Assembly (NCBI GenBank): GCA_050012855.1
Contig: JBEKGJ010000007.1
Coordinates: 34,241 to 98,240 of the forward strand
DNA from: Verrucomicrobiota bacterium
GTDB taxonomy: Bacteria > Verrucomicrobiota > Verrucomicrobiia > Limisphaerales > J093
Reading direction: 5' to 3'
DNA: 64,000 nt
Shown here: one piece after another, positions 33,504-40,783 of the stretch
How the letters are laid out: each line of letters begins with the position of its first letter
Position numbering within the stretch: position 1 is the stretch's first letter
Notes under the pieces: model-generated
What the model was told of the DNA's origin: nothing
Databases searched by the model: none
Seen by the model: only the letters and a program-made list of their open reading frames with translations
Program-made: the position numbers and the translations under genes

Positions 33504-34552
33504 ACCTCGAACCACCGGTTGTCGGATCCTCCGCCCGGCCCAGCACCCGGGCCGCGGCGTGGATGTTGTTCTTCCTCGCCCCGGCCGTCGGCGAACTGCT
33601 GAGCGGTTCGTCGCCGCCGCTCCGGTTTTTCAATCCCTTCACGCTGCTGATGGAGGCTTTCCTCTACGGCAGCGGCGCGTTGCTGGCGCGCGAGTTCACC
33701 CTCCGGTGGCGGCGAGGCTGGCCGACACTGCTGGCCCTGGGCGCGGCTTATGCCATCATTGAGGAGGGCTTGTGCTGCAAAAGCTTCTTTGACGCCAACT
33801 GGCCGGACGTCGGCCTGCTGGGCAGCTACGGGCGGTGGCTGGGGGTGAACTGGGCGTGGGCCGCCATGTTGATCCTGTTCCACACCGTGTTCAGCATTCT
33901 CCTCCCGATCACGCTGGTGGAGCTGACTTTTCCGGCGGCGCGCCATGAATCCTGGGTCGGCCCCCGGTGGCGCTGGGTGCTCGTCGGCCTGCTCACCCTG
34001 GTGGTCGTAACCGGGTTCCTGTTTTTCCCGGAGGGCAAGCACCCGTTCCGGCCGCCGCCGCTGGGCTATGGGCTCGCCGTGGTGAGCGTGGTGGTTCTCG
34101 GGGTCGTCGCCCGGCGGATGCCATTATTTCCCGCGCGGGCGGGCGGGCGCACGACGGCGGCCCGACCCTGCTGGTTCGTGCTGGTGGGGTTCTTCGGGAC
34201 GGTGGGGTTGTTTGCGACGTTCTGGCTGTTGCCGAACACGCCGCTGCATCCGTTGTTGACGGTGGCCGTGGGCCTGGTGCTGGGCGCCGGCGTGCTGGTC
34301 CTGGTCCTGTGGATGTCGGGTGGCGCGCACGCGTGGGGCGACCGGCATCGGGTGGCGCTCGTGTCCGGCGGGTTATGTTTCTTCGTGCTGCTGGCGCCGT
34401 TGCTGGAATTTGGCAAGCAGAACCCCTCCAAGCCGATGACCGGCATGGCGCTGGTGGGGCTGGCGACGCTGGGCTTCCTCCTCTGGCTGGGCCGGCGACT
34501 TCGGCGAATTCGGAGGTTGAATCCCCCGGGCGCGGCCGCAACATGCGCCTGA
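33500..34552 (+). CDS. Polytopic membrane protein, function unknown
   Basis: The start at 33500 overlaps the upstream stop (ATGA). At least 8 hydrophobic helices. The last ~17 codons lie inside direct repeat DR-A. Confidence 0.6.
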   Translation: MNLEPPVVGSSARPSTRAAAWMLFFLAPAVGELLSGSSPPLRFFNPFTLLMEAFLYGSGALLAREFTLRWRRGWPTLLALGAAYAIIEEGLCCKSFFDANWPDVGLLGSYGRWLGVNWAWAAMLILFHTVFSILLPITLVELTFPAARHESWVGPRWRWVLVGLLTLVVVTGFLFFPEGKHPFRPPPLGYGLAVVSVVVLGVVARRMPLFPARAGGRTTAARPCWFVLVGFFGTVGLFATFWLLPNTPLHPLLTVAVGLVLGAGVLVLVLWMSGGAHAWGDRHRVALVSGGLCFFVLLAPLLEFGKQNPSKPMTGMALVGLATLGFLLWLGRRLRRIRRLNPPGAAATCA

Positions 34553-34593
34553 CACTGCCTTATGAAAAGTCGCACTACTCCGCTGCTGGCCGC
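34502..34593. repeat. Island direct repeat DR-A (left boundary)
   Basis: 92 bp with 82/92 identity to 40692..40783. It covers the 3' end of the membrane-protein gene, the spacer, and an ATG plus ~10 codons homologous to the GH172 signal peptide ([11 protein letters not shown] versus MKNRTTLLLAA). Confidence 0.85.
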
Positions 34594-34987
34594 CAGTGCC
34601 TTCTGGCTGCCGCCCGAAGGGCGCTGGCAGACCATCCAGGCGACGGCCAAGTTGGCTGGGGTTGAAAAGGGTGGCGGGACCTTCAGGTCGGCCAAAACAA
34701 GTTGCCGCAATCGGCGAATGCACCGCGACTTCTCCCTCGCCGCCGCGAACGGGAACTTGAGCTGCTTGAGAGGCGGCGAAAGGGATTCGGCGAAGCCGAA
34801 GGACCGCTGCGGGCCGAGCGAGCGGGCGCGAGCGAGTCACTGGGCTGGGGTGAGACGTCGAGTTCAGCGCAACGCCGACATTTTTCAACATTTCATCCAT
34901 CACCTCTCGCCCGTGGGCGTGGCCGGATTCGTCCTCGCTGGTGGCACTATGTCCTCCAACCAGTCCGGCGATGCATTTGAAAACTAG
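34594..34987 (+). pseudogene. hsdM: Type I R-M methylase (HsdM) remnant, internally deleted and interrupted by a repeat element
   Basis: Two in-frame fragments: [19 protein letters not shown] (HsdM N-domain FxVPxxARW motif) and [33 protein letters not shown] (region after the catalytic motif; consensus WxQHFIxHLxPxGxAGFVLANGSMSS). About 250 aa between them are missing. The fragments are fused to the DR-A pseudo-start. Confidence 0.65.
34731..34845. repeat. Inverted-repeat element, left copy (IR-L)
   Basis: The reverse complement of core 34755-34845 matches 39459-39549 at about 93% (42 nt perfect: GCCCAGTGACTCGCTCGCGCCCGCTCGCTCGGCCCGCAGCGG). Contains internal small hairpins (TTCGGC-GAA-GCCGAA). 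Confidence 0.8.
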
Positions 34988-34993
34988 AAGCTC

Positions 34994-36223
34994 ATGATTG
35001 TTCGCCACATCACCCAGCCGGATCAATTTCACGGTCAAATTCTGGCCACTTTACTGGCACAGGCTCCTCATCCAAGAAGAGTAGTGCTTGTTTCAGCATT
35101 CGCTGGGTTACAGACCGTGATGCGTTTCAAACATTCCTTGATCGGTTTATCGGAACGTGGTGCCTTGGTTCGCCTTGTGATTGGTGTCGACATGCAGGGC
35201 ACTAGCCGAGAAGTGCTACAAGAATTGGCATCTTGGACACAAGTAGAAGTCTTCGTTTATCGGCACAGGAGGCCGGGACACACATTCCATCCGAAGATTG
35301 CTCTCATCGAATCGCCCACCGCATCTGATGTCTTTGTTGGTTCAAACAATCTCACCGAAGGGGGGCTCTTTCGGAATTATGAGGCCGCTAGCCATATTAC
35401 ATATTCGCTCCCGGCAGATTCTGATGCCTACACCCAAGCATGTCTTGGCCTTCGGCGGTTCCTAGAGCCAACATTGCCACTCGGACTGCGGCTAACTCCA
35501 AACCTTTACCAAGCACTCGCCCAAAGAACCGACATCCCGTCAGAAGCGCAACTCCAAGCAGATCGTCGCCGACAACGGGCTCAGTCTCAGGCCGGCGAAC
35601 CTGCGCAGAGACCTGAGGAAATATTTGGAACAGAGGCAATTCCCGCCCCGCCGCCGCTTCCGGCCGAACTGCTTGACGCGCTTTCGCTCGCCGTGAACCG
35701 CCGCCGTCGGGCGGTGGCGCAGCCAAATGCGGCCGCGCCTGCGATTGTCTCACCAGCACAAATAGCACCAGCGTCTTTTTACATGACGCTTCCAACGTTA
35801 CAGGGACCAAACATTCCGGGTGAAGGGCGAATACCACTCGCTGCCATTGAAATGGCGGAGGATTTTTGGGGATGGCCGGACGCCTATGAACGTCGTGAAA
35901 GCCCACGAGGTGGCGCGGAACGCGTCTATTTCAACTGGAGAAGTCGCTGGCAAATTGCCAATGCAGCGAATCCCGGAGTTCATACCCGCCAAGAGGTTCG
36001 AATGTACATGTACGAAAACAGTTCAGATTTTCGATTCTATGCCCGCCCTTTGGTGAATGCAGGAGCCGACCTTGGCGATATTGTGAGAATTACGCGAATC
36101 GGCTCGGAGGACGTCGATTTTGAATGCCTTCTCGCCCACCAAGGAACACCCGAGCATGCCACTTGGCTTCCGTTTTGCACGACTCTCGTCCGGAGCAGCA
36201 CGAGGAGATTCGGCTACGGGTGA
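34994..36223 (+). CDS. PLD-superfamily (single HKD) nuclease with putative B3-like DNA-binding C-terminal domain; BfiI/NgoFVII-like restriction endonuclease candidate
   Basis: 409 aa. One HKD motif, HTFHPKIALIESPTASDVFVGSNNLTEGG (aa 99-123). A Pro/Ala/Gln-rich linker follows. The C-terminal ~150 aa (FYMTLPTL...GEGRIPLAAIEMAEDFWGW...VYFNWRSRWQI...VRMYMYENSSDFRFY...GDIVRITRI) are beta-rich, in a pattern reminiscent of B3/EcoRII-N/BfiI-C pseudobarrels. GC is lower than the host. Confidence 0.7.
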   Translation: MIVRHITQPDQFHGQILATLLAQAPHPRRVVLVSAFAGLQTVMRFKHSLIGLSERGALVRLVIGVDMQGTSREVLQELASWTQVEVFVYRHRRPGHTFHPKIALIESPTASDVFVGSNNLTEGGLFRNYEAASHITYSLPADSDAYTQACLGLRRFLEPTLPLGLRLTPNLYQALAQRTDIPSEAQLQADRRRQRAQSQAGEPAQRPEEIFGTEAIPAPPPLPAELLDALSLAVNRRRRAVAQPNAAAPAIVSPAQIAPASFYMTLPTLQGPNIPGEGRIPLAAIEMAEDFWGWPDAYERRESPRGGAERVYFNWRSRWQIANAANPGVHTRQEVRMYMYENSSDFRFYARPLVNAGADLGDIVRITRIGSEDVDFECLLAHQGTPEHATWLPFCTTLVRSSTRRFGYG

Positions 36224-36264
36224 TATAGCATCACAAACACTCGGCGGCAGCCATGATTTTGGCA

Positions 36265-39162
36265 CTATGCTGTTTTTTCACACCAAATGATCTCATTCTC
36301 CGTGATGCTGTGCCTTGCGTGACGCCGGTTCTCGGTAGTTACGGTAATGGGAATCCGATCACGAATGTTCCACCCAAGTTCTGCCGCAGTTTCGGTCAAA
36401 ACATCCGCGCTCTTTATTATTACTTCCTGATCACCGGCGGTCGTGACGTTGTCGCCGATGACAAAAAAAGCTGACGCGCCGAGCTTGAGACACATGTCGA
36501 GATTTCGGAAGACCTTCGTCATGTCGGCGAAATAACGCAAGAGAAGCGCAGCCATGTTCTTCCTGCGGAAACCAACATCGGCGCTTTTATTGAGGCGATG
36601 GATTTTGGTGACGATAGCGCGAGCGGTAACGGATGGCACGTCATCGAATAGTGCAGCCTCGATTGTTGCTTCGAGCTTACGTCGGTCGCCATTGCGAATT
36701 TCTCTACTTCCTGTCAAAGACTCTTCAATTTGCGAACGCTCTGAGGACGAAACGCCGCAAAGAAGCAAGATGCTCAACCGGTCCGTGTCGATGTAGGGTA
36801 GCGCAGTCGCATAGGGAGGGCTCGTGATTACAGCGTTCACGCTCTCTTTTGTAATTCCAGCCGAGCTAAAACTGCGCACGTCTCGGCTGTCGTTCTGCCA
36901 GATATGTGAATCGCGGAATTTACACGGAGCTTTGTTTGATCGTGACGCGAATTCGCTTAACCGACCACGCTGTTCGGCAAGGTGCGACAAAAACAATTCA
37001 AAGACTGGCGCATCTTCAATCGGTTTGTCACGGCGTCGAATCCGAAGGTCTTTTGGGTCTTGCTGGGAAATATCTCGCACGATGCTGCTGAGCAGGACTT
37101 CGAGAAATTCTTTTACTCGCACCTCTGGCGTCTCACGGATTGCACGGAGCAACGCTGCGAGCTTGCGAAGCACCATTGTTGGAAACCAAGCCTCAAGTTC
37201 TTTCATTGAGGTTTGTGGGAAAACATCCAATTCAGACGATGGCTTTAATGCTGCAACTCGTTGTTGAAAAAGCGCCAGAAGCCGGTCTCGTAAATAGGGG
37301 TCAACCAATACAACCTCGGTTTTCGCCTTGGCAATCTTGATGGCCAACGGATTCATGTCGAAACCGACACCCTCAAATCCGTTGAGATACGCTTCAAGCG
37401 GGACAGTCCCACTTCCACAGAACGGGTCGAGAACTCGTTGGCCAATCGAAAGCCCCGCGAGATTAAAGAGGCTGCGGGCCAGTTGGGGGTAAAATTTGCC
37501 CTTGTAGGCATGTATGCCATGCGTGACATATTTCGGGTCTTTTCTCGCAGAAGTTTTCAGGGCATCGCCGTTTTCAAGAATCGCCTGCCAAGTTGGTTCT
37601 TCATGGATGGAAGTTGCAGCAAAGCTGTGACTAAACGTAAGCTGTCGCAGCTTGTCGATTTGAAGGGGACTGATTCGGGCCGTCAATATGTTGCCAAGCT
37701 CTTCTTGGGCGCTGACGCCGAGCAAGTGACTAATTTCAACTTTCCGAAGTTCCGCCTCATAGGGCCAAAGTTTGTATGGGGGTGGAAAGATCCGAATCTT
37801 CACTTGTTCAAGCGGCTTCCTTAACACCAGTAAACTTTCGGAGCGCAGCCGTCGCGCAGTTGAAATGAACGACCGGCGATGTTTGGGAAGGTCGCGTTCA
37901 ATTTCTCCGACGACCTCAAATCCTACTTCTTGAGCTCGCTCTCCGAGCAGACCAGCCGTGTGGGATAGTTTCCCAGCAAACAGGGAATCTCCAACAACCA
38001 TTACCGCAAAGCGCCCTGGACGGAGGCCATGCATCATGTGTCCGAGGCACTGCTGCATTTCGTTCAGGTATTCCTGAATTCCAGATTGCTCTTTCTGGTG
38101 TCGAAGGTGCGAGCCTATCTCCTTTTTCGCCAGCTCACGCGGATCGAATCCGAGCCAGAAGAGTCGGAAACGGTGGTAAAGATGGTAATCGTTGGCGTTG
38201 GCGTAGGGCGGCGACGTTACGATCAAGTCCACCGATCCCGGTTTGACGACATCGCCTTGCCGCAGGTCCGCAGTCAGGAATTGCGCTTCGCGAAATTGCA
38301 GAAACGTGCCGAGGTAACGAACCTTCTTCAGTGACGATTCCAATGCACCGGCAAACAGCCGGATGATCTTTCCTAGCGGGAATTCTTTCTGACAACGCGC
38401 ATATCGTGTCTCACTGTCTTGAAACGAAGCCTTGAGAATAATCTTCGACAGGCAGACCGACGCAAGGCGTTGGCATTTTTCCGACTGGAAAGTCTTGATT
38501 CGCGCTCTCAAATAAGAAAGCTCGGCAACTGCGTTTGGGTGAAACCATTGATCACAGTTTGGAATGTCAGGGGCAAACTGTGAAAGAGGGGCAAACCTGT
38601 TTAATGCTTCCGAGACAGAACCTTCACTTGCCGAAATGATGAACAACTGTTCAACAAGACTGGTCAGAAAATCGTCATCCTCTTTTGTGGGGGTGAGCAG
38701 CTTCGCCTTGCCAATGACTTCGGCAAGAGGATTCAAATCAGAACTGATTGCCTGCCGTCCCAAAAGCACGCTTTCGAGAGCTGTTGTGCCGCTGCCGCCA
38801 AATGGATCCCAAACCGTTTCTCCCGGAAGAGACAGGCGAGCAATCAGGTTGCGTGGGATTTGAGGGACAAACTTCGAAGGGTAGGGATGAATGTCGTGAG
38901 AAAGATAAGTCGTGTCATCGTCGGTGAAAGCCCAGTCAAGTTGCTGCAACTGGCGCAAAACTTCATCAGCGTCCGCTAACGATTCCAGGTTTTGAGGGTC
39001 TTGAGGGGTTTGTATCGGCTCAAACGAAAAATCGGCTGTGGCCTCGGCGATGTTGTCCGTGAACCACTCGGTCAAGGTCGCCCCGTTCTCTTTCAGCACA
39101 GAGGCGAGCGCCTGTTTCTGCGACTTGGTGGTTTCTACAAGGATTTGCGTTCCGGTTCGCAT
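36265..39162 (-). CDS. Tandem double DNA methyltransferase (two N4C/N6A-type modules) with putative N-terminal ribbon-helix-helix segment
   Basis: 965 aa, the lowest GC in the window. Module 1: HPYPSKFVPQIPRNLI...WDPFGGSGTT (aa 119-127) and IVTSPPY (317-320). Module 2: HAYKGKFYPQLARSLF...LDPFCGSGTV (579-587) and VITSPPY (781-784). N-terminal TQILVETTKSQKQALASVLKENGATLTEWFTDNI has a strand-helix-helix pattern. Convergent with the PLD gene. Confidence 0.85.
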   Translation of the reverse strand: MRTGTQILVETTKSQKQALASVLKENGATLTEWFTDNIAEATADFSFEPIQTPQDPQNLESLADADEVLRQLQQLDWAFTDDDTTYLSHDIHPYPSKFVPQIPRNLIARLSLPGETVWDPFGGSGTTALESVLLGRQAISSDLNPLAEVIGKAKLLTPTKEDDDFLTSLVEQLFIISASEGSVSEALNRFAPLSQFAPDIPNCDQWFHPNAVAELSYLRARIKTFQSEKCQRLASVCLSKIILKASFQDSETRYARCQKEFPLGKIIRLFAGALESSLKKVRYLGTFLQFREAQFLTADLRQGDVVKPGSVDLIVTSPPYANANDYHLYHRFRLFWLGFDPRELAKKEIGSHLRHQKEQSGIQEYLNEMQQCLGHMMHGLRPGRFAVMVVGDSLFAGKLSHTAGLLGERAQEVGFEVVGEIERDLPKHRRSFISTARRLRSESLLVLRKPLEQVKIRIFPPPYKLWPYEAELRKVEISHLLGVSAQEELGNILTARISPLQIDKLRQLTFSHSFAATSIHEEPTWQAILENGDALKTSARKDPKYVTHGIHAYKGKFYPQLARSLFNLAGLSIGQRVLDPFCGSGTVPLEAYLNGFEGVGFDMNPLAIKIAKAKTEVVLVDPYLRDRLLALFQQRVAALKPSSELDVFPQTSMKELEAWFPTMVLRKLAALLRAIRETPEVRVKEFLEVLLSSIVRDISQQDPKDLRIRRRDKPIEDAPVFELFLSHLAEQRGRLSEFASRSNKAPCKFRDSHIWQNDSRDVRSFSSAGITKESVNAVITSPPYATALPYIDTDRLSILLLCGVSSSERSQIEESLTGSREIRNGDRRKLEATIEAALFDDVPSVTARAIVTKIHRLNKSADVGFRRKNMAALLLRYFADMTKVFRNLDMCLKLGASAFFVIGDNVTTAGDQEVIIKSADVLTETAAELGWNIRDRIPITVTTENRRHARHSITENEIIWCEKTA

Positions 39163-39191
39163 TTCTGGGATGGTAGTCTATCATCCCAGAA
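39163..39191. promoter_or_regulatory. Perfect 10-bp inverted repeat abutting the methyltransferase start codon (candidate operator)
   Basis: TTCTGGGATG-N9-CATCCCAGAA. On the coding strand the right arm runs directly into the ATG (CATCCCAGAAATG). Confidence 0.45.
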
Positions 39192-39209
39192 TCTGACAAT
39201 AGATTTTTT

Positions 39210-39445
39210 CACCTTTTTTGCATGGCCATGCCGGACATTTCGATTTTGTCCGACGAATTTCTGGCCGAGGTCCAGCGGCTGCCACGGCGCGACCTTGCCG
39301 TGGAATTGTTCCAGAAGCTGCTGAACAACGAGTTGAAAACTCGGCAGAAGAAATACCTGGTCCAGTCCTGCTCGTTCGCTGAAATGCTGGAAGCCACCAT
39401 CCGCAAATAGCAAAACCGCACCATCGAGGCCGCGCAGGGATTTCG
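39210..39445 (+). pseudogene. hsdR: Type I restriction subunit HsdR, C-terminal fragment only
   Basis: [71 protein letters not shown] matches the conserved HsdR C-terminal (DUF3387-type) region. The in-frame TAG (39408-39410) sits where homologs have Tyr (RKYQNR). Nothing N-terminal to this survives. Confidence 0.65.
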
Positions 39446-39458
39446 ACAGCTCGCCCCG

Positions 39459-39573
39459 GCCCAGTGACTCGCTCGCGCCCGCTCGCTCGGCCCGCAGCGG
39501 GCCTGCGGCTTCGCCGAATTCCTTTCGCCGCCTCCCAAGCGGCTCAAGTCCCCGGACGAGGCGGAGAGGGTGT
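39459..39573. repeat. Inverted-repeat element, right copy (IR-R)
   Basis: See IR-L. Lies between the hsdR remnant and the four-helix-bundle gene. Confidence 0.8.
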
Positions 39574-40005
39574 CGGTCCTGGCCTGACCTGCCGCTTCTC
39601 CAGCGTGCCGTTGCCCGGGATGGGCCGGGTCGGCTCAAACCTGTGTAAACGCCTGAGAATCAGCGTCTCGCGTTCAAGCACCGGGGGCTGATTGGCGTGC
39701 GGCAGGCCCGGAACGGCGCGTTTTGACCGCTGACGGCCGCGCGGAGGACGCTTTCCGGAACGCGGATCGTTCTGATCCGGTCGCGGACGGTGCTTTCGCT
39801 TTCGCGGGAGACGCTTAGGGCGGCGGGGCAACCGCTTTCAGCGGCGCGGAGGGCGCTGACGGGGCGGCGGACGACGGGGACATTTGCGCGGCGCCTGCCG
39901 CTCCTCCGGCGGAAGGCCCTGCGGGTCGTGCGCGTCAGGCCGTCCCATTCGCGGCGGACGATTACGAGGAGGAGATGCTGCGCCTCTGCCGCCGCACTGC
40001 CTGGC

Positions 40006-40650
40006 ATGAAGCAAGGGCCGGAGAGACTGATTCCCTTGCATCGCGGGTACCGGAAGCTGAAGAGCTTCCAGGTTGCCCAACTGGCCTACGATGTGACGGT
40101 GCGTTTCTGCGACCGCTATATTGACAGGCGGAGCCGGACCCACGACCAGATGGTCCAGGCGGCGCGGTCGGGCGTGCAGAACATCGCCGGGGGCAGTCAG
40201 GCGAGTGGAACGTCCAAGAAGACCGAGCTCAAGCTCACAAACGTGGCCCGGGCCAGCCTGGAGGAACTGCGGCTGGACTATGAGGATTTTCTGCGGCAGC
40301 GCGGTCTGGCGCAGTGGCCCAGCGAAGACGTGCGCCGGGCGGAACTGATAGCAGCGCGGCCCGGCACCGCCGATGATGTGGCGGAGTGGGTGCGGGCCGT
40401 GCATGAGGGACTACATGGACGACGTGGACAGGATGGACAAAGCCCGGTAGAACAAAAGTCCACGGTGTCCATTCAGGCCACCACGTCCACCTATGCTGAG
40501 ATTTCAGCCAACGGCGCGCTGGCGCTGCTGACGGTGGCGTGCAGCCTGCTGGACCGCCAGATAACTTCTCTCGAAAAGGCCTTCGTGGAAGAGGGCGGTT
40601 TCACCGAGCGGCTCTATCGTGTCCGCAGCCAGAGGAGAAGGCGCGGTTGA
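40006..40650 (+). CDS. Four-helix-bundle protein (23S rRNA IVS-protein family) with C-terminal suffix domain
   Basis: Start preferred at MKQGPERLIPLHRGYRKLKSFQVAQLAYDVTVRFCDRY...QMVQAARSGVQNIAGGS...SLEELRLDYEDFLRQRGL, the family signature. As I recall, this family is often embedded in Type I R-M loci. Confidence 0.8.
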   Translation: MKQGPERLIPLHRGYRKLKSFQVAQLAYDVTVRFCDRYIDRRSRTHDQMVQAARSGVQNIAGGSQASGTSKKTELKLTNVARASLEELRLDYEDFLRQRGLAQWPSEDVRRAELIAARPGTADDVAEWVRAVHEGLHGRRGQDGQSPVEQKSTVSIQATTSTYAEISANGALALLTVACSLLDRQITSLEKAFVEEGGFTERLYRVRSQRRRRG

Positions 40651-40691
40651 ACTTGCCGTGCCTGCCGCCGCCGGAGTGCCGGGGGCGGTCC

Positions 40692-40783
40692 CGGCGAATT
40701 CGGAGGTTGAATTCCCCGCCCCCGGCCGCAACATGCGGCTGACACTGCTTTATGAAAAACCGCACCACCCTGCTGCTGGCCGC
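40692..40783. repeat. Island direct repeat DR-B (right boundary)
   Basis: Partner of DR-A. Contains the real start and signal-peptide codons of the GH172 gene. Confidence 0.85.

Follow-up and report, generated by a model that had tools for sequence, protein, structure and literature searches.

Two adjacent, intact genes in the genome of a Verrucomicrobiota bacterium (lineage J093) were found to encode a BfiI-like restriction endonuclease (R) and a fused double DNA methyltransferase (M). They lie in a stretch of 64,000 nt, hereafter the window, taken from assembly GCA_050012855.1 (contig JBEKGJ010000007.1, positions 34,241 to 98,240); all coordinates below are positions in the window. BfiI and BmrI are type IIS restriction-modification (R-M) systems of Bacillus that recognize ACTGGG and cut at 5/4. 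The pair is best read as a self-contained, horizontally acquired, type IIS-like R-M cassette of the BfiI kind, a reading to which we assign a probability of about 0.75. Its architecture, its homology, the conserved pairing of the two genes, and a conserved promoter element are shown here, whereas its enzymology, methylated base, target site, and feedback control are inferred. Such cassettes are widespread in uncultured bacteria and for the most part unremarkable; what is new is a conserved inverted pair of TCTGGG sequences on the M promoter.

The R and M genes are convergent open reading frames (ORFs) with 41 nt between them, and they match the two full-length, low-GC genes noted in a preliminary description of this DNA. 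The GC content is 51-55% across 35-39 kb vs. ~63-69% on either side, and this dip points to horizontal acquisition of the pair; its location in an island bounded by direct repeats supports the same conclusion. The features of the two genes are as follows.

34994-36223, plus strand: R gene, BfiI-like restriction endonuclease of 409 aa, intact (ORF; Pfam; BfiI structure 2c1l first by sequence and by fold)
34994-35488, plus strand: phospholipase D (PLD; HxK) nuclease domain of R, about aa 1-165, with the catalytic residues encoded at 35288-35383 (BfiI alignment, family invariance, fold matches)
35489-35767, plus strand: Pro/Ala/Gln-rich linker of R, about aa 166-258, with predicted helices at 184-199 and 224-242 (low predicted local distance difference test score, pLDDT, of 52-76)
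35768-36220, plus strand: B3-like, BfiI-C-type DNA-binding pseudobarrel of R, about aa 259-409, including a C-arm hairpin at 326-349 with N342, D345, and R347 (Pfam BfiI_DBD, 3zi5 fold match)
36265-39162, minus strand: M gene, fused double DNA methyltransferase of 965 aa, intact (ORF; PADLOC MTase_II models; model pLDDT 87; unfused M1 and M2 homologues at two other loci, L031 and L032)
37813-38985, minus strand: module A of M, about aa 60-450, with HPYPSKF, DPFGGSGT (motif I), a helical insert, and TSPPY (motif IV, 317-320) (PADLOC, alignment, model)
36268-37800, minus strand: module B of M, about aa 455-965, with HAYKGKF, DPFCGSGT, a helical insert, and TSPPY (781-784) (PADLOC, alignment, model)
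39028-39162, minus strand: N-terminal segment of M of ~45 aa, ribbon-helix-helix (RHH)-like, status unproven, with a candidate strand at 5-11, helices at 13-26 and 30-43, and a G27-x-T29 turn (secondary structure, hhalign)

Restriction endonuclease and fused methyltransferase

The R protein carries a lone HxK motif, as the preliminary description had noted, and its H99, K101, N119, and E130 correspond to H105, K107, N125, and E136 in an alignment to BfiI. These catalytic H/K/N/E residues are invariant across 51 aligned homologues. Pfam models PLDc_2 (E 1.4e-8) and BfiI_DBD (25.2 bits, cutoff 25) were matched, and a phmmer search against PDB sequences returned BfiI as the only match (2c1l, E 1.7e-10, with both domains aligned; 3zi5, E 7.7e-7). 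An AlphaFold model built on the homologue alignment had a pLDDT of 83.9, and the best Foldseek match to it was BfiI 2c1l (E 4.9e-18), which covered both domains. Further matches were the PLD domain of SauUSI, the NgoAVII R-protein (4rct), NucT, Nuc, and Zucchini, and the BfiI-C/DNA complex (3zi5, TM-score 0.58). The preliminary description had proposed that the C-terminus was a B3/BfiI-C pseudobarrel and that an AlphaFold model should display it beside a PLD fold; both domains were recovered in this way, with the borderline Pfam match, phmmer, and the 3zi5 Foldseek match agreeing on the pseudobarrel.

The DNA-reading surface of R was compared with that of BfiI. In the BfiI-C co-crystal, N279, D282, and R284 of the C-arm make essential base contacts, D282 and R284 are the residues with which TGG is read in BfiI and EcoRII-N alike, and D282 also contacts the cytosine N4 that the BfiI methylases modify (PMC3973309). 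The three residues align with N342, D345, and R347 of R, of which D345 and R347 are family-invariant, and BfiI N280 is replaced by S343. By analogy with BfiI, R would dimerize through its single-HxK PLD domain to form one metal-independent active site, and its C-terminal pseudobarrel would read an asymmetric site.

In the M protein, PADLOC models of stand-alone type II methylases (MTase_II) cover aa 65-449 and 456-951. The AlphaFold model of M (pLDDT 87, predicted template modelling score 0.87) contains two complete Rossmann cores, each with DPFxGSGT (motif I), a helical insert of ~150 aa, and SPPY (motif IV). Modules A and B are paralogues with 30% mutual identity from motif I to motif IV, and all catalytic and S-adenosylmethionine (SAM)-binding motifs are intact. 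The claim of two complete methyltransferase modules in one chain was therefore upheld by the PADLOC coverage, the two Rossmann cores, and the stand-alone homologues of each half. A fold search with the M model returned generic class I methyltransferases only, with no close solved structure among them. Because both modules carry SPPY, which is typical of N4-cytosine methyltransferases, they probably make N4-methylcytosine (m4C), one per strand. This agrees with the BfiI methylases, which modify N4-cytosine on both strands (PMC3973309).

A Pfam N6_N4_Mtase match to aa 311-612 of M was rejected as a real domain, since it runs from motif IV in module A into motif I in module B and is judged an artefact of the permuted beta-class motif order of the model. 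Such a match across the module junction could mislead automatic domain annotation.

These results bear out the BfiI-like type IIS system proposed earlier, with a PLD and B3-like nuclease and both strand-specific methylases in one chain. Several observations weigh against it. The overall identity of R to BfiI is ~16%, and its BfiI_DBD score barely passes the cutoff. The C-arm residue E276 of BfiI is M339 in R and hence not conserved, and no equivalents of the BfiI N-arm contacts R212, T225, Y227, and W229 could be aligned in R. The step from SPPY to m4C is a rule of thumb, and the members of the cassette family are all predicted from metagenome-assembled genomes (MAGs).

Distribution, relatives, and comparison with known systems

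Hundreds of full-length homologues of both R and M were found in metagenomes and in many phyla. A search of 1.84 billion cluster representatives with R yielded 65 clusters with E <= 1e-30 and 619 with E <= 1e-10, including many full-length two-domain proteins with 28-35% identity. The identical 409-aa R protein occurs on many Verrucomicrobiota MAG contigs from JGI metagenomes (61 blocks of the collection). Loci containing the pair were fetched for comparison (L003-L008 and 19 GTDB MAG loci), the latter from Nitrospira, Fermentibacteria, Desulfobacterales, Syntrophus, Latescibacterota, Gemmatimonadales, Binatia, Dehalococcoidia, Bacteroidota, and Terriglobia. Across more than 20 loci, which span over ten phyla, the convergent R and fused-M genes are the sole conserved unit among unrelated neighbourhoods. 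No relatives of the cassette were found in viral contigs. Mobility genes often lie near the cassettes, for example a phage integrase with IS110 and DDE transposases (L006/L007), an IS66 transposase with DruA (L028), and a resolvase (L029); these neighbours are consistent with a mobile cassette.

The preliminary description had regarded the architecture as unusual and undescribed, which does not hold: the same pair recurs in more than 20 loci with hundreds of homologues, fused type IIS methylases have already been described for AlwI, and PLD-type restriction enzymes are "far from rare" (PMC4081073).

Two distant relatives show the methylases unfused. On the Rhizobium anhuiense plasmid pRA_T24_3 (L031; NZ_CP098802, 210661-214882) and at a metagenomic locus (L032), R is accompanied by separate M2 and M1 genes. 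The Rhizobium M1 is 34% identical to module A and M2 is 36% identical to module B, with the same order as in the fused protein, which indicates that the 965-aa M is an M1-M2 fusion. As in the window, the PLD and BfiI-like R of these loci (~30% identity) is convergent with methylase genes homologous to modules A and B. They differ in having separate M1 and M2, a helix-turn-helix (HTH) domain on M1, upstream short repeats other than TCTGGG, and a different R C-arm sequence. The repeats lie by the M1 start (CTATATGCA twice in L031; CCTATA...CCTATAGG in L032) and are likely an SsoII-style operator.

Three further loci, L028 (5902-7023), L029 (5899-7140), and L030 (5914-7164), combine a close M with a divergent nuclease; their M proteins are 53-72% identical to that of the window. 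In L028, where M is 72% identical and the TCTGGG palindrome is kept, the adjoining PLD nuclease is ~21% identical to the window R; in L029 and L030, M of the RHH type is paired with nucleases 24-25% identical to the window R, and the L029 nuclease keeps a C-arm-like YENRSEFR. This combination implies that the methylase and the promoter element were retained and the nuclease beside them replaced. The fused methylase with its promoter thus appears, from these comparisons, to be the stable evolutionary unit around which PLD and B3-like nucleases are swapped. In L026 and L027, R is fragmentary.

Compared with BfiI/BmrI, the cassette shares the single-HxK PLD N-terminus with the same H/K/N/E residues, a flexible linker, a B3-like C-terminus with the C-arm N/D/R residues, and an accompanying capacity to methylate both strands, probably at N4-cytosine. 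It differs from them in several respects. R is ~16% identical to BfiI and its linker is ~50 aa longer, the methylases are fused in a 965-aa chain, M has the extra RHH-like segment, TCTGGG probably takes the place of ACTGGG as the site, and a conserved inverted pair of such sites lies on the M promoter. Whereas BfiI and BmrI come from Bacillus, the cassette occurs in a wide range of phyla, uncultured Verrucomicrobiota among them. A literature search did not reveal how M.BmrI is organised.

M.FokI is a fused double methyltransferase of a type IIS system. Like M.AlwI, which has two complete methyltransferase modules per polypeptide, one for each strand of an asymmetric site (PMC4081073), M unites two modules in one chain. 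Both M.AlwI and M.FokI are adenine methylases that accompany PD-(D/E)XK-type nucleases, whereas the partner here is a PLD nuclease; unlike in these enzymes, both modules of M have SPPY (m4C-like), motif I before motif IV, and a helical insert of ~150 aa.

To our knowledge, no metal-independent type IIS restriction enzymes other than BfiI and BmrI have been well studied. The cleavage domain of BfiI/BmrI has been used in chimeric nucleases (PMC2094064). The family described here is a large uncharacterised environmental clade that combines the two-domain logic of BfiI with two methylases in a single chain and a target that probably differs (TCTGGG). Nothing is overturned by it, since PLD nucleases, fused methylases, and methylase autoregulation each have precedent.

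The TCTGGG pair at the methyltransferase promoter

Immediately upstream of the M start codon, two features were identified.

39163-39191, no strand: inverted pair TTCTGGG-N15-CCCAGAA abutting the M start codon, candidate cognate sites or autoregulatory element (perfect 10+10 palindrome; arms recur in 24 of 26 loci)
39170-39199, minus strand: predicted sigma-70-like M promoter with -35 TTGTCA (39199-39194) and -10 TACCAT (39175-39170), the latter in the palindrome spacer and ending 7 nt before the ATG (consensus scan, prediction only)

The palindrome is perfect and reads TTCTGGGATG-N9-CATCCCAGAA. Its arms, (T/A)TCTGGG and CCCAGA(A/T), recur at this position in 24 of the 26 loci compared (L001-L027), with a variable, usually AT-rich spacer of 13-15 nt, at loci whose proteins are only 45-50% identical; the chance expectation is ~0.01 per locus. 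The two exceptions are L019, in which one base is changed in one arm, and L026, a decayed cassette. No TCTGGG was found upstream of R in the 15 loci inspected. An RNA hairpin was rejected as an explanation, the arms being invariant without compensatory changes, the spacer free, and a promoter-like site overlapped; the same pattern of arms and spacer points to a protein-binding DNA site.

A TANNNT hexamer lies within the palindrome spacer in 17 of 21 loci, so the half-sites bracket the predicted -10. At the RHH-type loci (the window, L008, and L028) the right arm abuts the ATG; together with the predicted -10 ending 7 nt before it, this suggests that the M mRNA may be leaderless there. At loci without the RHH-like segment, the M start mostly lies another 11-18 nt downstream (2 nt in L017 and 6 nt in L023), and a Shine-Dalgarno-like GGAG is present between the palindrome and the M start in L005 and L006.

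The preliminary description had proposed a strand-helix-helix RHH domain ahead of the modules and had cast it as a regulator. Its topology is compatible with the data: in the monomer model, residues 1-45 of M form a coil (1-12) and helices at 13-26 and 30-43 with a pLDDT of 64-76, and an RHH strand would form only in a dimer. Arc, CopG, and ParD share a G-x-S/T turn, which the ENG-A-T of M (G27-A-T29) resembles. The family assignment received no profile match, since a Pfam scan of the 82-aa N-terminus to E 10 detected no RHH family, and a search of PDB sequences with a profile of 22 M N-termini gave noise only. Aligned by hhalign to ParD and CopG sequences, the same profile fell in register, weakly (ParD, P 2e-4, probability 47%; CopG, P 1.7e-3, probability 15%). 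An N-terminal RHH is accordingly plausible but unproven. Conservation in M is lowest at the N-terminus, where no column reaches 90% before residue 59. In about a quarter of the aligned M homologues the segment is replaced by an unrelated N-terminus, and it is absent from nearly all GTDB loci, so that only a subfamily has it. In the unfused relatives L031 and L032, the N-terminus of M1 is a MerR/excisionase-type HTH, not RHH-like; a DNA-binding extension on the first methylase would therefore be a recurring theme.

As an operator for the RHH-like segment, the palindrome was rejected, because element and segment dissociate in both directions: ~17 loci combine an intact palindrome with an M that has no such segment, and the palindrome is incomplete in the RHH-type loci L029 and L030. 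The regulator role given to the segment in the preliminary description is not supported by this result. In the window's subfamily the segment may add DNA binding, yet it would not be the reader of the TCTGGG element.

The favoured reading is that the TCTGGG pair represents the system's own recognition sites, used for autoregulation. On the sequence comparisons at hand we place this somewhat short of even odds. TCTGGG matches the BfiI site ACTGGG at five of six positions, with the first base differing (~1-3% for a random hexamer), and the TGG-reading C-arm residues are conserved in R. The arms are invariant in a family in which the R DNA-binding domain and the methylase inserts are strongly conserved and the M N-terminus is not. 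In addition, TCTGGG is modestly depleted inside the cassettes: 17 copies were observed vs. 30 expected in 19 cassettes, rank 33 of 2080 hexamers in an unbiased depletion test, the list being topped by palindromic hexamers partly since the counting method double-counts them. The following points weigh against this reading. The depletion is weak in the cassettes and none was seen in the host flanks, the predicted M promoter is a consensus match of a kind no commoner than in shuffled sequence, and the palindrome might instead serve as an operator for a part of M common to all members. A search of the literature on TCTGGG/CCCAGA methylation motifs found nothing relevant, and the distant relatives L031 and L032, with their different short repeats and HTH-type M1, are uninformative on cognate sites.

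Methylase promoters are controlled by cognate sites in CfrBI and LlaDII, and the methylases of SsoII, Ecl18kI, EcoRII, and MspI regulate themselves through an N-terminal HTH and an operator (PMC3874152). The M promoter resembles those of CfrBI and LlaDII in that candidate cognate sites overlap the predicted core promoter; unlike theirs, it has two candidate head-to-head sites that bracket the predicted -10 rather than one site. M resembles the SsoII group in its predicted DNA-binding-like extension at the methylase N-terminus, although this extension is RHH-like rather than HTH and dispensable for the conserved element. If the pair consists of cognate sites, M would be transcribed from a promoter whose -10 lies between two head-to-head TCTGGG copies, and binding or methylation of these sites by M would feed back on its own transcription. 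On entry into a new host, the sites would be unmethylated and methylase would be produced in a burst; their methylation or occupation would then throttle M expression. That the widespread family is a metal-independent type IIS R-M system of new specificity (TCTGGG), which senses its own methylation state and times methylase expression accordingly, is a tentative proposal, slightly less probable again than the site assignment itself. If true, the target of an uncharacterised R-M family would be readable directly from its promoter, and promoter-embedded cognate sites suggest a general shortcut for predicting R-M specificity. The site pair on the M promoter provides a concrete, testable hypothesis for both specificity and establishment control and is the most useful new lead obtained here.

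The closest competitor of the cognate-site reading is a dedicated operator unrelated to the target, bound by the RHH-like segment or another shared part of M in an SsoII-type autorepression. The recurrence of N-terminal DNA-binding extensions on the first methylase would fit it (in L031 and L032, a MerR-type HTH with repeats beside the start codon), as would the RHH-like topology and G-x-T turn of M, the overlap of the palindrome with the predicted core promoter, and the precedent for operator-type methylase autorepression (PMC3874152). The palindrome, however, is uncoupled from the RHH-like segment in both directions, its arms are invariant beside the least conserved part of M, and an arm spacing that varies over N13-15 fits a rigid dimer poorly; a dedicated operator would also make the five-of-six match to the BfiI site a coincidence. 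We regard such an operator as unlikely.

Far less probable are two readings that concern the cassette as a whole. R might be an ATP-dependent nuclease of the NgoAVII/CglI type or a modification-dependent PLD nuclease (SauUSI-like or DISARM DrmC-like) rather than a stand-alone BfiI-type enzyme. The R-proteins of NgoAVII and CglI share the PLD and B3-like domains, the fold matches of R include the NgoAVII R-protein (4rct) and the PLD domain of SauUSI, weak DrmC matches were obtained for R, and R of L029 has a weak RE_NgoFVII Pfam match. The NgoAVII/CglI R-proteins need a separate ATPase N-protein, whereas no helicase/ATPase N-protein gene is present in the window island or beside R in L003-L030, where M alone is conserved. 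BfiI ranks first by sequence and by fold with both domains covered, the DrmC score of R is far under the cutoff (20 bits vs. 133), and the tightly linked double methylase argues for a classical R-M system; this makes the ATP- or modification-dependent reading the least probable of all. A decaying or inactive passenger, or an M that is effectively an orphan methylase, is very improbable too, if marginally less so. The cassette sits in an island of gene fragments and some relatives are visibly decayed, with R fragmentary in L026 and L027, but R and M of the window are full-length ORFs that can be aligned with their homologues from end to end, the catalytic and SAM-binding motifs are all intact, the palindrome is perfect, and the identical R protein recurs on contigs in the 61 blocks mentioned above. 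The BfiI-kind cassette is accordingly retained as the preferred reading of the gene pair.

The island around the gene pair

The gene pair is enclosed by remnants of other genes, listed below.

34502-40783, no strand: island of ~6.1 kb bounded by 92-nt direct repeats (34502-34593 and 40692-40783; 88% identical) (repeat search, gene content)
34595-34987, plus strand: hsdM remnants at 34595-34680 and 34862-34987, split by the left arm of an inverted repeat at 34734-34861 (in-frame translation; N6_Mtase E 0.06, weak)
39222-39570, plus strand: hsdR C-terminal remnant from 39222 to ~39440 (T1RH-like_C E 3.4e-23) that contains an in-frame TAG (39408-39410); next to it, the right arm of the inverted repeat at 39443-39570

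The 92-nt repeats duplicate the end of the upstream intergenic region and the first ~11 codons (5' end) of a DUF2961/GH172 gene. They resemble an att-type duplication, but the island no longer contains an integrase. Its contents, in left-to-right order, are the hsdM-like fragments, the left inverted-repeat arm (which interrupts the hsdM pieces), the cassette, the hsdR fragment, the right arm of the repeat, and a 23S_rRNA_IVP-like four-helix-bundle gene. The frame of the hsdR remnant runs past the TAG (...EATIRK*QNRTIEAAQ), which identifies it as a pseudogene fragment. The preliminary description had placed the pair in a decayed defence locus; the HsdR C-terminal fragment (E 3.4e-23) is solid ground for this, and the HsdM fragments (E 0.06) are weak. 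The island holds no intact type I R-M operon, only fragments, and no hsdS. Rfam and tRNA scans of the window found nothing.

The 128-nt inverted repeat (34734-34861/39443-39570) is 89% complementary and brackets an hsdM fragment, the cassette, and the hsdR fragment. It has no further copies in the window and may stem from an old inversion or represent the two ends of a mobile element. A 214-aa ORF (40006-40650) at the island's right end has a weak match to 23S_rRNA_IVP (four-helix bundle), a gene type that commonly neighbours type I R-M genes.

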